A DNA stretch of 64,000 bases from assembly GCA_036507075.1 (NCBI GenBank), contig DASXQR010000003.1, positions 32,001 to 96,000 on the forward strand. The letters run 5' to 3'. Shown one piece after another: positions 602-57,948 of this stretch. This stretch comes from Acidobacteriota bacterium (lineage in GTDB: Bacteria; Acidobacteriota; UBA6911; JACQSX01). Position 1 is the stretch's first letter. Each line of letters starts with the position of its first letter. Made by a program: the position numbers and the translations under genes. The notes under the pieces were generated by a model. It searched no databases. It was not told where the DNA came from and worked only from the letters and a program-made list of their open reading frames with translations.

Positions 602-2110
602 ATGAACGAGACGGATCCGATCGTACAACGAAAGAAAAAATTGGAAGAGATCATACAGAAGGGTTTCGACCCTTATCCGCACAAATACGACTACACCCAC
701 ACCATCGCCGGAGTGATTCAGGAGTTTTCCTCCAAAAGTCATGAAGACCTGGAGTCGAGTCCCATCCACGTGCGTGTTTGCGGGCGATTGATCGCCCTGC
801 GGGCGCACGGCAAGGCGGCATTTGCGCATCTGACGGACGGTGAGGCCAAGGTTCAAATTTACATAAAGAAGGATAAAGTCGGCGACCGCTTGTTCGACTT
901 GTACCAACTGCTTGACGTGGGAGACATCCTGGGAGCATCCGGGCAGATCTTCCGGACCCGAACCGGCGAGTTGACGGTTTTTGTCGCGGAAATGGAATTG
1001 CTGGCCAAGTCGCTCCTGCCGTTGCCTGAGAAATGGCATGGTTTGACCGACACGGAAGCCCGGTATCGCCAGCGCTACGTCGATCTGATCGCCAACCCCG
1101 AGGTGCGCGAGATCTTTAAGCGACGCGCTGCCATTGTTCGTGAAATTCGCACCTTTTTCGACGAGCGCGGTTATATCGAAGTCGAAACGCCGATGATGCA
1201 ATTAATGGCAGGAGGGGCAACCGCCCGTCCTTTCCAGACTTTCCACAAGGCGCTCGGAATTCCTCTGTATCTGCGGATCGCGCCCGAACTCTTTCTAAAG
1301 CGGCTCACAGTGGGAGGGTTTCCCCGGGTCTATGAGATAAATCGGAATTTCCGCAACGAAGGAATTTCCACCATGCACAATCCCGAGTTCACCATGCTCG
1401 AGTTTTACCAGGCATATAGCAATTATCGGGATTTGATGGACCTTTCCGAAGAACTGCTCACGCGCGTGGCCGAGCGGGTCGGCGGGTCGCGGCAGCTGCA
1501 ATACCAGGGCACGGTAATCGACTTTGGGCGCTGGCAACGATTCACCTTATACGAATCAATTCTGCATTTCTGGAATCTTCCTGCTGAAAAGCCGGAGCTT
1601 TCGGACCTGAAGAACCCGGAAAAACTGCGTAACCTGCTGGAAGGTCACAATATTGCCTATCTTCGATCGATGGGCCAGGGAGCCATGCTGGGTCAGCTTT
1701 TCGAAGCGGTAGTGGAGCATCAATTGATCCAGCCCACCATTATTTATGACTACCCGGTCGAGTTGTCGCCACTTTCAAAGACGCGGGACGATGACACTTC
1801 GCTCGTGGAACGGTTCGAGCTGTTTGTCGGCGGCATGGAAATTGCCAATGCGTACAGTGAGCTGAATGATCCCGAGGAGCAGCGCCGGCGGTTCGAGGAG
1901 CAGTTGCGCAAGAAGGCCGCGGGTGACGACGAAGCACACGGGATGGACGAAGACTATATCCGCGCCCTGTCCTACGGCATGCCTCCCACGGCAGGCGAGG
2001 GAATCGGCATCGATCGGCTGACCATGATATTGACCAACACGCGTTCAATCCGTGAAGTAATTCTCTTTCCCCACCTCCGCCCCGAACGGATCGAGGCGGA
2101 TACCCCCTGA
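602..2110 (+). CDS. lysS: Lysine--tRNA ligase (class II)
   Basis: OB anticodon domain, [48 protein letters not shown]. Confidence 0.98.
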
Positions 2111-2136: not shown

Positions 2137-2628
2137 GAGATTCACCACAGAGGCACAGTCCGGCCGCAGGCCGCAACCAAAAAGCCGTCTACGAAAACGT
2201 CAACCACTACGTCTACGAGCACGATCACGACAACCTCCACGTCCTGCGTTCACGAGCACGAGCACGTCAACGTCTTCGTCCCAGGTCCACGCTTACGACA
2301 AGATGATCAGCTTCAATTCTCTGCAGCCCAGGCTGCACCCCACGAGATTGTAGACATTATCGTAGACGTGGCCGACCCCCGTGGACGTTGGACGTGGTCG
2401 TGCTCGTGAACCTGAGACGTAGTCGTGGACGTAGGCGGCTTTGAAAAATGTTGCCAAAAAAACAAGAAGTTACCAACTTGTTACTTAGCGAAGCCGCAAC
2501 TAAAGAGCGGGGGCGGTCCAGCATGGCCGACCGTTGATAATTTGCGCAAGCCCCGAAAACTCCCGCGGTTAGTAGTACAGAGGACACAGGGGATTTCCTG
2601 TGTCCTCTGTGCCTCTGTGGTGACTCTC
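2137..2628. repeat. 9-mer-period palindrome (CACCACAGAGGCACAGAGGACACAGG..CCTGTGTCCTCTGTGCCTCTGTGGTG) whose left arm is split by a 422-bp insert
   Basis: Removing 2156-2577 restores a left arm matching the reverse complement of 2597-2628 with 1 mismatch. Confidence 0.85.
2156..2577 (-). mobile_element. Two tandem non-autonomous insertion modules (2156-2485 and 2486-2577); the first carries a hexamer-period inverted repeat
   Basis: Clean empty-site reconstruction; ends shared with 50977-51220 and 37688-37965. Confidence 0.65.
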
Positions 2629-2770
2629 CTTTGCAACGGTTTTGTAGCAGGATTAAACGATTCCTACATGTTTGTCCTGCCGCCAGAGATTCGGCTCAGC
2701 TCGCGACTGGTCGACTGCAAACCTGTAAACCACATTGTGGCATAGGCTAAGCACGGCTCAGGTGCTGCCT

Positions 2771-2799
2771 TTCAACGTTCCTCTTTATGGTGCTAAGAT
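2771..2799 (+). promoter_or_regulatory. Putative sigma70 promoter for the GlnD-like gene
   Basis: TTCAAC-N17-TAAGAT with extended TG; ATG 10 nt downstream (near-leaderless). Confidence 0.45.
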
Positions 2800-2809
2800 T
2801 GCTTAGCTC

Positions 2810-4234
2810 ATGAAAAAACAGGTTGCCCGGATGCCGGCAGATTCAAAAAAAAACTCACCCACCCAGCGCGCTGTCAAGGTGCTCGATCGAATTTCCGCCG
2901 GAAGGGAGCCTGGACAATCGCGTTTTCAAAAAGTATTTCGGACAATTTCTGACCCTGTTCCGATGTATCTGGCGCTGGTGCTCCATGACGCTGGGAAAAA
3001 ACATCGACGCTTGGTTCCCCCAGAAGGCGCGCCCGCAGCCCGGAGCGCCCGCAGTCAATTGGAGAGCAGTTCCGAGCGCGCTGCGGCTGTAGATTTCCTG
3101 GTGAGACACTCGTTGTTAATGCCGGCACTGTCGCAGCGTCGTGATTTGTCCGATCCGGCCCTGATTGAAGATTTCGCGCGCACCGTCCAGACACTGGATC
3201 GCCTCAACATGCTGGTGCTTTTCACCTACGCGCAGGCCAGCAGCGCCGGGCTTGGCGACTGGAATTCCTGGAAAGCGGAGCTTCTTTGGGAATTGTACAG
3301 TCTTGCGCGATCGCATCTTGAGGGCAAACCCGCCAGGTGGGACCAACACCGGACCGACCTGGTCAAACAACGAATCATCCGGCATCTCCTGTCTGAGCAT
3401 TTGCCTGTCTCAGCGCAGCACAGGTTTGCTTTTCGCCGGTCAGAATGGTGGGTCGGGATTTTCGCGGAGTTTCTGCCTGTTGAAGTGGAGCGCCACTTTG
3501 CCATGCTGCCGGAGCGTTATCTCCGCTCTACAGAGCCGGACCAGATTACCCAGCAACTGCGCTTGATCCGCCAGTTGTCCGACAGGCCATTGGCCACCAG
3601 TTGGGAGAACCTGGGAGACGGCCATACCACGCGGCTGACCGTTTGTACACGTGACAGCACCGGACTGTTCGCCCGGCTGGCCGGAGTGCTGACTTCTCAC
3701 GCGATCAACATACTGAGCGCGGTTTTGTATACGCGCGAGGACGGAGTGGTCGTTGATGTCTTCAAATTGTGCGAGATCGACGGACAGCAGCCTGTGGCTC
3801 TGGAGCACCGTTCGAGGGTAGATCTGACATTGAGCGACGCCGTCGAGGGAAAACTCGACGTGGCAGGCGTGGTCAATCGCTGGCTCTCGCGGACGACGGG
3901 CCCGCGCCAGCGGCCGTACTGGAAACCGACCTTCCCCAGTGTGAATTTCGATTCCGAGGTCAGCGCCACCAGTACGGTTATTGAGGTTCACGCCGAGGAT
4001 GAGCCGGGTGTCGCCTACAAGATTGCGCACACGTTGTCGGAAATGGGGCTCAACATCAACTTTGCCAAGATTTCTACCGAGAACAGTCAGGTTCTGGATG
4101 TTCTTTATGCCACCAGTGAGTCGGGCAAGAAGCTGACCCGGGCGGAAATGACAGCCGTCGAACAGAGGCTGGTGGAAGCGCTGGCCCCGAGCCGTGGCGC
4201 GTTGACCAAAGCTGCCAGTGCGCGACAGCAATGA
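2810..4234 (+). CDS. GlnD-like protein lacking the N-terminal nucleotidyltransferase domain (degenerate HD region plus two ACT domains)
   Basis: LALVLHDAGK, FLVRHSLLM..LSQRRDLSDP, WNSWKAELLWELY, DSTGLFARLAGVL (ACT1), DEPGVAYKIAHTL (ACT2); only 474 aa. Confidence 0.8.
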   Translation: MKKQVARMPADSKKNSPTQRAVKVLDRISAGREPGQSRFQKVFRTISDPVPMYLALVLHDAGKKHRRLVPPEGAPAARSARSQLESSSERAAAVDFLVRHSLLMPALSQRRDLSDPALIEDFARTVQTLDRLNMLVLFTYAQASSAGLGDWNSWKAELLWELYSLARSHLEGKPARWDQHRTDLVKQRIIRHLLSEHLPVSAQHRFAFRRSEWWVGIFAEFLPVEVERHFAMLPERYLRSTEPDQITQQLRLIRQLSDRPLATSWENLGDGHTTRLTVCTRDSTGLFARLAGVLTSHAINILSAVLYTREDGVVVDVFKLCEIDGQQPVALEHRSRVDLTLSDAVEGKLDVAGVVNRWLSRTTGPRQRPYWKPTFPSVNFDSEVSATSTVIEVHAEDEPGVAYKIAHTLSEMGLNINFAKISTENSQVLDVLYATSESGKKLTRAEMTAVEQRLVEALAPSRGALTKAASARQQ

Positions 4235-8220: not shown

Positions 8221-8370
8221 AATTACAAGTTGGCAACTTCTCGCTTTTTTGCAAAGTTTTGTCTGGCATCTGCATTCCTTCACCGCAGAGGACGCAGAGA
8301 GTGCGCAGAGTTTCGTTTGCATGTCTCTGCGCAACCTCTGCGTTCTCTGCGCCTCTGCGGTGAAGGAATG
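8221..8370 (+). repeat. Module end motif followed by a 9-mer palindrome (CACCGCAGAGG..CCTCTGCGGTG); homologous copy at 57739-57890
   Basis: Shared CAACTTCTCGCTTTTTT..AGTTTTGTCTGGC..CATTCCTTCACCGCAGAGG and TGTCTCTGCGCAACCTCTGCGTTCTCTGCGCCTCTGCGGTGA. Confidence 0.85.
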
Positions 8371-8442
8371 TGACTTTCCACATCAGCATATGACGATCAG
8401 GCTGCCAAGCGGGAACATCATGTTCTTCAGGAGGCACGCAGA

Positions 8443-36923: not shown

Positions 36924-36986
36924 AAATCCTTTACAATGCAAAACTCTGCGAAAGTCGTACGATCCTGCACTATGAAAGTCTGGAAG

Positions 36987-37033
36987 CTTGGTGCCTTGGT
37001 GGTAGAAAAAACTGAACCACCAAGACACCAAGC
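36987..37033. repeat. Back-to-back 9-mer arms (CTTGGTGCCTTGGTGGT..ACCACCAAGACACCAAG)
   Basis: Inverted arms in the tetR leader. Confidence 0.6.
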
Positions 37034-37508: not shown

Positions 37509-38028
37509 AAAAACCGTCTACGTCCACGTGCACGACTACGGCAACGTTCACGGCAACGTTCACGGCAACGTCCATGATTATGTCTCGCAGTCAGGCTCTG
37601 GCACCGATCAGTACCGCTGGGTGCCAGGGAACCGGACAGTGCAGACGTCAACGTTGGCGTACGTTGGCGTGGACGTCGACGTGGTCGTGTTACCGGATCG
37701 TGAAATGTGGTTTTTTTGACCAGATTCTCATGTGAAAGAATCGGACACGGATAGCGGCTTTGCCGCCAGCTCTTGCGGAAAGGCTTCGCCTTTCCGTCGA
37801 GAACCACTCCACAAAAATCCGAGGCTGTGCCTCGGAATTTGCGAGGCACAGCCTCGCACCGAAAAATAACAGACCAACGGAAAGGTGAAGCCTTTCCGCA
37901 AGAGCTGGCGGCAAAGCCGCGTGATTTTTTCCATCACCTTTGGTTATGGCCTTACGGCCACCGTGTGCACGTGAACGTGGACGGTTTTTTGTTTGACTGC
38001 GGCTTCGCCGTGTGTCCGTGGTGAAAAC
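37509..38028. repeat. Multi-level nested repeat: hexamer-period palindrome containing an insertion module with REPIN cargo, ending in a 9-mer arm
   Basis: Arms AAAACCGTCTACGTCCACG..CGTGAACGTGGACGGTTTT; cargo palindrome 37754-37920. Confidence 0.8.
37688..37965 (+). mobile_element. Non-autonomous insertion module (278 bp)
   Basis: Removing it restores CGTGGTCG|TGCACGTGAACG, which matches the opposite arm; ends GGTTATGGCC-TTAC-GGCCACCGTG. Confidence 0.65.
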
Positions 38029-39730: not shown

Positions 39731-39772
39731 ACTTTTCACATTAGGCGCAAGAGTGCTGCCAAGGTACATTCA

Positions 39773-39872
39773 AATGCGGATTTCGGAATTCGGAATGCGG
39801 AATATACTTAACTTGAGTTGTCAAAGCCGAAGCCAACACCCTTGCCATTCCACATTCCGCATTCCCAAATCC
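39773..39872. repeat. Inverted GCGGAAT heptamer element
   Basis: Spacer homologous to the 12757 and 25667 copies. Confidence 0.8.
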
Positions 39873-45086: not shown

Positions 45087-45207
45087 CGGAATGCGGAATG
45101 CGGAATGGGGAATGCGGAATGCGGAGTGCAGAATATGGAATTCCCCATTCCCCATTCGCCATTCCCCATTCCGCATTCGCCATTCCGCATTCCGCATTCC
45201 CCATTCG
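45087..45207. repeat. Inverted GCGGAAT/CCCCATT heptamer element
   Basis: Between convergent genes. Confidence 0.88.
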
Positions 45208-47296: not shown

Positions 47297-47499
47297 TGAA
47301 CCGCCAAGAACGCCAGGAGCGCTAAGCTTTGAAGAGTGAACCGCCAAGAACGCTAAGAACGCCAAGCACTGGGAGCCATAAAATTTGACAATCGCTCACC
47401 AGTCGTTGAAGTATAAAAATAATTTCAAAGCTTAGCGCTCTTGGCGTTCTTGGCGGTTCAGTTTTCAAAGCTTGGTGTTCTTAGCGTTCGTGGCGGTTC
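47297..47499. repeat. Doubled 9-mer palindrome (two AACCGCCAAGAACGC left arms, two right arms)
   Basis: Inside the efflux operon. Confidence 0.85.
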
Positions 47500-49775: not shown

Positions 49776-50034
49776 GAAGGTCAAAAGCCGAACGTCAAGC
49801 CTGGATTATTCACAAAAAGCTTAACCGCGAAGAACGCAAAGAACGCCAAGAGAGCGCAAGGGACGGGGGCTGAAACTTGAAGTATGAAGGCCTCAAACCG
49901 TGTCCTAAGTCTGCCTGGCGCCTTCATACTTCAAGTTTCAGCCCCCGTCCCTTGCGCTATTCTTAGCGCTCTTAGCGTTCTTGGCGGTGAAGATTTGTGA
50001 ATAATCCAGGCTTGACGTTCGGCTTTTGACCTTC
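49776..50034. repeat. 259-bp composite palindrome between convergent genes
   Basis: Perfect 41-bp outer and 39-bp inner arms with a divergent 9-mer segment between them and a ~28-nt loop. Confidence 0.92.
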
Positions 50035-50976: not shown

Positions 50977-51220
50977 TGTAGCAAGTTGGCAACTTCTTGC
51001 TTTTCTGGCAAAGTTTCCAGGCCGTCCACGAGCACGAGCACGTCAACATCCACGACTACGTCTACGTTTTCTGGATACGGCGGCGATTGGTAGACTGCAG
51101 AGAATTAAAGGCTGTTTAGAGGATGATGTTGTCGTGATCGTGGACCTGAGACGTAGTCGTCGACGTGCTCGTGCTCGTGGGCGTGGACGGCTTTTTGGGT
51201 TGCGGTCTACGGCTGCGCTG
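50977..51220 (+). mobile_element. Non-autonomous insertion module (244 bp) with hexamer-palindrome cargo, inserted in a 9-mer arm
   Basis: Homologous to 2156-2485 (inverted); empty site CTTAGCGCTCCTTG|CGGT..GTGAAGATTTTTGAATAATCC resembles 49971-50012. Confidence 0.7.
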
Positions 51221-51303
51221 CGGTTTTTGAAGTGAAGATTTTTGAATAATCCCGGCTGGTCGAGTGATATTTTCATAGCAAACTCTTCGGAGGTCTTGCG
51301 TCC

Positions 51304-57738: not shown

Positions 57739-57948
57739 GGTCAACTCCGGTCAACTTCTCGCTTTTTTAACAGAGTTTTGTCTGGCGCCTACATTCCTTC
57801 ACCGCAGAGGCGCAGAGAACGCAGGGAATGCGCAGAGTTTTGTTTGCGTGTCTCTGCGCAACCTCTGCGTTCTCTGCGCCTCTGCGGTGATTTTTGAATT
57901 CGATGACTCGTAATCCGTGATACTAATGACCATTGACCGATGACCATT
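57739..57948 (+). repeat. Second copy of the 8221-8370 composite plus a TGACCA(T/G) heptamer run
   Basis: Direct alignment to 8234-8363. Confidence 0.82.

Follow-up and report, generated by a model that had tools for sequence, protein, structure and literature searches.

Gene-less minis in palindromic repeats of an Acidobacteriota genome share ends and target with an element encoding a predicted Rep_trans-like protein

We analysed a stretch of 64,000 nucleotides of an Acidobacteriota genome (the window) and found that an insert splitting a host palindrome is made of two gene-less minis, which have the ends and the T^G target of a 1.7-kb element of an unnamed family. The minis are probably moved in trans by the ~515-aa protein of the full-length element, a predicted Rep_trans-like (TBP-fold) tyrosine nickase, through IS91-style rolling-circle strand transfer. 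The insert and its surroundings are organized as follows (window coordinates):

602..2110, plus strand: upstream host gene, class II tRNA synthetase, lysS-like (PF00152, PF01336)
2141..2154: outer portion of the split arm of the host 9-mer palindrome
2155..2576, minus strand: composite of two non-autonomous minis (order on the minus strand: B, A), whose excision rebuilds the palindrome
2155..2484, minus strand: module A, with an A-type left end, hexamer-palindrome cargo, and a hairpin right end
2155..2185, minus strand: right end of module A, with a T-run, GGTTG, a CGGC-loop-GCCG stem, and a 6-nt tail, then the host G (profile 25.9 bits); likely the termination end
2183..2437, no strand assigned: cargo of module A, inverted hexamer-repeat arms around a trace of ~30 nt
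2442..2484, minus strand: A-type left end of module A, which spans 43 nt, terminates in TCA, and has 22 contiguous nt in common with the autonomous element L239; likely the origin end
2485..2576, minus strand: module B, with a B-type left end (2535-2576), a short REP-like hairpin cargo (about 2509-2532), and a right end (2485-2508)
2577..2624: host 9-mer palindrome, remainder of the split arm, loop, and intact partner arm
2810..4234, plus strand: downstream host gene, ACT-domain protein (PF01842)

Excision of 2155-2576 rebuilds the host palindrome of 9-mer repeats, with two 28-nt arms that are one base apart (27/28 match). The earlier note on this DNA had claimed that a deletion restores the palindrome arm, and this is the case; its coordinates (2156-2577) describe an equivalent insert but are one base off. 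It had also divided the insert in two tandem modules and described both end motifs. The motifs are found as it gave them, and the modules are arranged head-to-tail in the same orientation, on the minus strand. Contigs of X1 span positions 1700-2238 and 2444-3200 of the window with 0-1 differences. The trace within the cargo of module A (about 2297-2326, plus strand) gives a weak alignment with the 3' end of a four-helix-bundle gene, and the left end of module B aligns with the autonomous elements L043, L167, and L235. No Rfam family matched within the window at gathering thresholds. Four relatives of the same family carry after lysS another gene than the host, and hence provide no orthologous empty site for this locus. 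Among the joints listed, Logan contigs of four runs show neither a circle joint nor an empty allele for the window loci, which is uninformative since contigs drop rare variants.

Further copies and partial ends were identified in the window:

8222..8428, plus strand: copy with an A-type left end and 9-mer palindrome cargo but lacking the right end
37689..37966, plus strand: C-type mini (a third type of left end, with TCA at 42 nt), REPIN-like palindrome cargo
37992..38016, plus strand: right end of an outer element, degenerate and without a visible left end
50978..51221, plus strand: A-type mini that carries hexamer cargo and scores 43.3 bits with the left-end profile and 14.0 bits with the right-end profile; contigs of both X1 and X2 bridge it
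57752..57780, plus strand: partial A-type left end (21.6 bits)

The C-type mini is nested at T^G inside a hexamer arm. It had been listed before as a recurring copy, together with the one at 50978-51221, and both stand after a shift of one base, whereas the right end near 38012 is a degenerate one for which we see no left partner. The pattern of the C-type left end is loose, with 10 matches of which several are due to chance and none was paired by the strict right-end filter, so that the evidence for this type consists of the window copy plus a few others like it. The window also contains further intergenic repeats that are multi-copy and have a high contig depth (about 36985-37033, 39770-39804, 45087-45182, 47317-47465, and 49823-49984), and the profiles find no such ends there.

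The host genome has 86 left ends of the A-type, 43 of the B-type, and ~142 hairpin right ends. For comparison, the reversed genome has 0, 0, and 2, respectively. The junction logos read YTGT|GTAAC for the 86 A-type and YTGT|ACTAC for the 43 B-type left ends. At the other extremity, the stem is followed by 6 nt and then a G in 121 of the 142 right ends, and this spacing between stem and junction is exact in 51 of the 57 host-flanked right ends (filter without B-type ends). In A-then-B tandem joints, B starts directly after the right end of A with no G in between. Hence, the G is part of the host sequence, which places the cut at T^G. This single rule covers A-type ends, B-type ends, and A-then-B joints, with exact junctions at many unrelated loci. 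We ruled out the alternative of a G^ junction and a duplication of 1 nt, as the extra G is absent from B elements and from A-then-B joints. An attC/integron reading was also ruled out, because the two ends are not complementary.

The absence of TIR and TSD, proposed in the earlier note, is confirmed: the two ends are unrelated, and there is no duplication in 21 of the 23 B elements that were scored or in a filled/empty pair of another genome (G094, see below). The 2-4 nt of junction microhomology that it had reported concerns only the A-type, where the ambiguity is of 1-9 nt (14/14 scored), and is missing from 21 of the 23 B-type elements scored. Since the A-type end mimics the target and the ambiguity of B elements is nearly always zero, these values indicate that there is no target duplication. 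The terminal inverted repeats and target duplication that characterize TIR-type MITEs were not found in these minis. As for the subterminal hairpin, the stem is present at the right end, but taken alone it folds no better than shuffled sequences (z between -1.2 and +1.2). One of its pairs covaries (C:G in 111 and T:A in 11 of 148 copies), and the T:A copies look like a single subfamily. The terminal tetranucleotide is CTAA in 34 of the 142 right ends, and this terminus, that of B-type ends, differs from the CTGT target. Identity among the 15 B-type copies with a length of 150 bp is 92-99%, and 21 of the 142 right ends are less than 400 nt from the end of a contig. The A-type left end is present in three of four genomes of the same family and in none of the 36 more distant genomes searched.

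The two end motifs co-occur across the genome, a check proposed in the earlier note. With the strict pattern, 27 of 76 testable A-type left ends have a right end on the same strand at most 800 nt downstream, and the profile search adds right ends for 24 of the remaining 49 (none in reversed controls), resulting in 51 of 76. The corresponding value for B-type left ends is 27 of 36. Right ends on the opposite strand were found in 2 A cases and 1 B case, and upstream right ends in none, with a chance expectation of 0.009 per search interval (~1%). The polarity that had been suggested is the rule, but there are exceptions, since 7 of the 142 right ends are in inverted right-right pairs, and left-left pairs also occur. 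No right end is detectable for 25 of the 76 A-type left ends, and many A copies are truncated. These unpaired ends and the inverted forms suggest that recombination within palindromes also shapes these repeats. Symmetric copies were observed on contigs C31, C226, C228, and C10 of the host genome (G000) for the right-right form, and on C163 and C10 for the left-left form. They probably arise by conversion between palindrome arms.

No enzyme had been seen within the window, and one acting in trans had been called for, which is supported by the ORF found between the same ends in other genomes. The two types of enzyme suggested at the time were not retained. A Y1/Y2 HUH enzyme is not supported by the ORF itself, which lacks a conserved His pair and any Pfam or NCBIfam transposase match and has a predicted TBP-type fold. 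Nor is an IS110 DEDD enzyme supported, given the lack of Transposase_20 (PF02371) matches in the host genome. The latter has 12 Y1 and 2 Y2 matches, none of which is bounded by these ends, and the host Y1, Y2, and IS110 enzymes were ruled out as partners. Broken fragments of IS91-type Y2 genes were found at G000:C10:27377-27550 and C81:6528-6620; the fragment in C81 follows an integrase-like gene, and the one in C10 adjoins attC-like palindromes (by eye). The gene of the ~515-aa protein is absent from the host assembly, which is 95.7% complete, by both tblastn and profile searches. The four relatives of the same family have at most decayed fragments of it, in one genome. A decayed 3' fragment was found in a genome of this family (L194, G004:C140), with no adjoining end motif by eye.

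A scan of species genomes with the right-end pattern resulted, among the matches listed, in 122 stretches from many phyla. Among these listed matches, most are minis with varied palindromic interiors, and 6 of the 122 loci carry the same ORF just inside the end, on the opposite strand. The ORF starts 13-67 nt inside the right end in the five loci that cluster together; the sixth was recognized by eye. One of the loci, L043, is a whole element whose B-type left end lies just past the stop codon, within a 9-mer palindrome. Looking for a copy that encloses an ORF had been recommended in the earlier note; a ~515-aa ORF does lie between these ends in other bacteria, but its product is predicted to be neither HUH nor DEDD. 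The full-length set, which comes mostly from a protein-based search, comprises 47 loci and 40 distinct proteins. In a clade of 29 proteins (SH-aLRT 100, quick tree), the right end is upstream of the gene (ATG) in 25 cases, against 1 of 11 outside the clade, where it apparently comes from a separate mini. L165, L238, and L239 cluster together (SH-aLRT 99, quick tree), and A-type left ends were found in L165 and L239. The latter is from the same order as the host and has the same host target, an A-type end, and the run of 22 nt in common with module A at the left end. In 13 of 14 autonomous loci, 41-43 nt separate the stop codon from the junction, and TCA is at 43, 42, and 42 nt in the A, B, and C left ends of the window. 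This match in spacing indicates that the minis have retained the left end as far as the former stop codon.

Full elements and minis with common ends coexist in G094, where the element is present in 5 copies with 96-99% identity and different flanks. The genes flanking one of the copies are about 2.1 kb apart with the element and ~80-180 bp apart in five relatives. One copy (L230) splits a mini of ~195 bp, and the uninterrupted copies (L224/L225) continue through T^G with nothing gained or lost. This is a base-exact filled/empty pair. Hence, the search for empty sites suggested in the earlier note succeeded in G094 and failed at the window locus, where the gene that follows lysS in relatives differs. 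At least part of the gene is present in 19 of 40 genomes chosen by their right-end motif and in 17 of 301 in a sample of the phylum, a comparison that is indicative only, since the queries differ (a single protein for the latter).

Several observations concern the spread and diversity of the family. B-type minis with the same junction are present in phage or prophage contigs (L035, L037), and such minis provide a possible route between hosts. Distant clades of the ~515-aa family (L179/L190, L183, L193, L248, L270) have different ends, e.g. an upstream hairpin common to L179, L190, and L183, which suggests that several subfamilies with their own termini exist. In a sister clade (L169, L245, L267), the right end reads GGTTCCGGC...CCGG followed by a TTAG tail, and its outer stem pair shows a compensatory change. 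Distant homologues (22-29% identity), annotated as hypothetical or as ArsR regulator, were found in the PLSDB plasmids NZ_CP014580.1 and NZ_OY970457.1 and in 11 more, from Burkholderiaceae and actinobacteria. These carriers are culturable sources of the family.

The earlier note had described variable palindromic cargo, nesting, and insertion into palindromic repeats at a fixed site, all of which we recovered. Its view of the hexamer cargo as a palindrome is accurate for the inverted hexamer arms but leaves out part of the content, as 10 A-type mini loci retain the last 10-19 codons of a four-helix-bundle gene (E up to 0.001, small database). An intact four-helix-bundle gene, flanked by hexamer repeats like those of the A-type cargo, is found in host contig C37, and a RAYT (Y1) gene is nested as cargo within an A-type element in host contig C32. 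Autonomous elements can also hold a divergent passenger, located between the ATG and the right end, such as a PF05635 four-helix-bundle gene in L242 and a PF13366 GxxExxY gene in L236. Considering these passengers together with the gene of C37, the codon relics, and the nested RAYT, palindromic cargo probably represents repeat-flanked cassettes that were captured and then collapsed to their arms. A motif of the approximate form TTTCGCAGATTT, 9-12 nt, CAGTTATGT is found upstream of RAYT, four-helix-bundle, and GxxExxY genes alike (contigs C32, C37, C73, C83, C85, C88, C107, C122, C152, and C223 of G000, among others).

The ~515-aa family is very large: grouping at 90% identity gives at least 7,874 clusters, and grouping at 50% leaves 5,907 representatives. 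We found no Pfam or NCBIfam transposase match in 27 proteins of the family, nor any match to PF04986 (HUH Y2) in the same set of 2 + 25 proteins, to PF02486 (Rep_trans; E up to 1 for 2 proteins and up to 0.05 for 25 more), or to PF02371 (Transposase_20) and PF25227 in the ~515-aa protein. A sequence search of the PDB with the family alignment gave no match, and the search of PHROGs gave winged-helix matches only. The AlphaFold2 model has a pLDDT of 92.4 for the whole protein and of 95.5 for residues 1-388, and predicts a MarR-like winged helix in the C-terminal ~120 residues. In its longest alignments, the N-terminal part of the model matches TBP with Z of 8.2-8.3 over 176-179 residues (rmsd 4.0 at Z 8.3, 177 residues), RepDE (4cwc) with Z of 6.9-7.1 over 178-206 residues (rmsd 5.8 at Z 7.1, 206 residues), and RepSTK1 (4cij) with Z of 6.5-6.8 over 195-199 residues (rmsd 4.6 at Z 6.8, 199 residues). 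These scores are middling, as Z below 8 can mean a common arrangement, and TBP outscores Rep_trans. Foldseek revealed no PDB match at E of 0.001 or better (4cij was at 0.008, probability 0.82-0.84), and its viral search matched A0A345MNV4 (E 5e-4), which the available text of PMC13107129 describes as an inovirus Rep_trans protein. Among 143 sequences, E246, Y320, R328, and E330 are invariant, D20, D250, and K322 are near-invariant, and there is no conserved His pair. Compared by motif, D20, E246/D250, Y320-x-K322, and L327-R328-x-E330 follow the Rep_trans order N', III (YxK), IV (LxRxE) given in the available part of PMC5714925, with motif I being ExxxD and not RxD. We therefore predict that the protein has a TBP-type fold with Rep_trans-like motifs and a winged helix, and is neither HUH nor DEDD. 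Given the middling fold scores and the match of residues at the level of motifs, nickase activity is a prediction.

These elements resemble several known systems in part. The PATE derivatives of IS200/IS605 are short gene-less hairpin elements without TSD that are moved in trans. Like them and like the REP/REPIN of RAYT, the minis are gene-less, bear hairpins, lack TSD, are trans-moved, and cluster in palindromes, but the enzymes of those systems are small Y1 HUH proteins and none of the 12 host Y1 loci is bounded by our ends. Helitrons have a GC hairpin a few bases from the 3' end and insert between two fixed bases without TSD. The near-terminal GC hairpin, two-base insertion site, lack of TSD, and cargo capture are common to both, but Helitrons are eukaryotic and use an HUH-helicase transposase. 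IS110/IS1111 differ from our system by their enzyme, as no DEDD/Transposase_20 protein is found in the host genome or as the partner protein.

The closest likeness in end anatomy is with IS91/ISCR and mini-IS91, which have two functionally distinct ends, lack both TIR and TSD, use a short fixed target that adjoins one end, and have minis that can be moved in trans (available parts of PMC13181058 and PMC5714925). The layout found here agrees with that of IS91 in the available text of PMC13181058, where the palindrome end is upstream of the gene, the fixed target adjoins the other end, no duplication is made, and the strand transferred is the one opposite the gene. The subterminal palindrome at the gene-upstream end has its counterpart here in the hairpin end found upstream of the ATG for 25 of the 29 clade proteins. 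In contrast, our enzyme is not an HUH Y2 (no PF04986 match, no His pair, TBP fold predicted), and the target is YGT^G inside repeat arms. Head-to-tail joints are present here, and can also be made by reinsertion. Rep_trans initiators and MOBT relaxases (PF02486; RepDE 4cwc, RepSTK1 4cij) share with the ~515-aa protein the predicted TBP-type catalytic fold and the conserved D, YxK, and LxRxE. The known ones start plasmid or phage replication or ICE transfer and nick CT'AA in the loop of a hairpin (PMC9371924, in the part available), whereas our protein has no PF02486 sequence match, lies inside a compact insertion element, and has its junction 6 nt outside the hairpin. Rep-Arvir (DUF7845, archaeal SNJ2 ORF19) also combines a TBP-fold domain with a C-terminal MarR-like winged helix, is unrecognizable by sequence, and has the Foldseek matches A0A345MNV4 and A0A2N9QVX7 in common with our protein (PMC13107129, same extent). 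It is an initiator of archaeal virus or plasmid replication and not a transposase, and PF25227 has no match here.

In the mechanism that we favor, the enzyme would nick the left end, 3' of its gene, with Tyr320, and the nicked strand would be joined to a target nicked at YGT^G. Transfer would stop 6 nt past the hairpin of the right end, 5' of the gene. The left end would thus be the origin and the right end the terminator, the transferred strand being the one opposite the gene. The right ends of the A-type would recreate the target, which would explain head-to-tail stacks. Minis probably arose by loss of the gene between the 42-nt left end and the right end, and also by the collapse of captured repeat-flanked passenger cassettes (four-helix-bundle, GxxExxY, RAYT) to palindromic arms. 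Against this mechanism, no enzyme is assembled in the host genome, and neither a circle nor one-ended capture of flanks was seen (contigs only).

The same family and protein could instead work without rolling-circle synthesis, by peel-and-paste in the manner of IS200/IS605 (a single-strand circle at replication forks) or by site-specific strand exchange. This is unlikely, although it accommodates the lack of target duplication, the fixed short target beside one end, the terminal CTAA (34/142) unlike the target, the fact that one-ended capture was never observed, and palindromic targets that could form single-stranded hairpins. The conserved GC stem is at the right end only, the gene runs from the hairpin end to the target-adjacent end as in IS91 (PMC13181058, available text), and the nearest folds are those of rolling-circle initiators, all of which argue against it. 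We regard it as improbable that the minis, while descending from the family, are now immobile fossils or spread by recombination or gene conversion among palindromes. The enzyme missing from the assembly, the many truncated copies and inverted right-right or left-left forms, and the lack of an empty allele in the contigs examined are in line with such an explanation. Yet, T^G junctions are exact at many unrelated loci, B copies are up to 99% identical, and a multi-copy autonomous element could be unassembled at contig ends, within 400 nt of which lie 21 of the 142 right ends; moreover, the question bears on present activity and not on origin. It is very improbable that the ends are wrappers of REP/REPIN type moved by host RAYT (Y1 HUH) or IS91-type (Y2) enzymes, in spite of the 12 Y1 and 2 Y2 matches and of the REPIN-like cargo, since none of these 14 loci is bounded by the ends, RAYTs have their own REPs, one RAYT sits inside an A-type element, and across phyla the ends go with another ORF.

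In the available text of PMC5714925, rolling-circle transposases are HUH enzymes only, and Rep_trans proteins are limited to plasmid and phage replication and ICE transfer. We found no description of a Rep_trans-like transposase in the literature searched, which leaves out most subscription journals and ISfinder. The main text of PMC2700814 makes no mention of these ends, and its supplementary alignments may bear on an earlier listing. On balance, we lean towards a third route to rolling-circle transposition, used by an IS superfamily spread across the bacteria (about 5,900 clusters at 50% identity) whose enzyme would be a Rep_trans-like tyrosine nickase of TBP fold and not HUH. It would need only ends of 42 nt and ~30 nt, insert without scar at YGT^G in hairpin repeats, and both capture and spread other repeat-flanked cassettes. 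What would be new is the class of enzyme used for transposition, as the anatomy of the ends resembles that of IS91. The minis define the minimal ends and the target at base resolution, such that a trans-mobilization assay is directly buildable, and a single ~515-aa protein inserting variable cargo without target duplication would be of interest as a tool. If the mechanism holds, a very large unannotated protein family would be a new class of transposases. If such a third route exists, it would explain part of the nested palindrome arrays in the genomes of Acidobacteriota, Planctomycetota, and Desulfobacterota.
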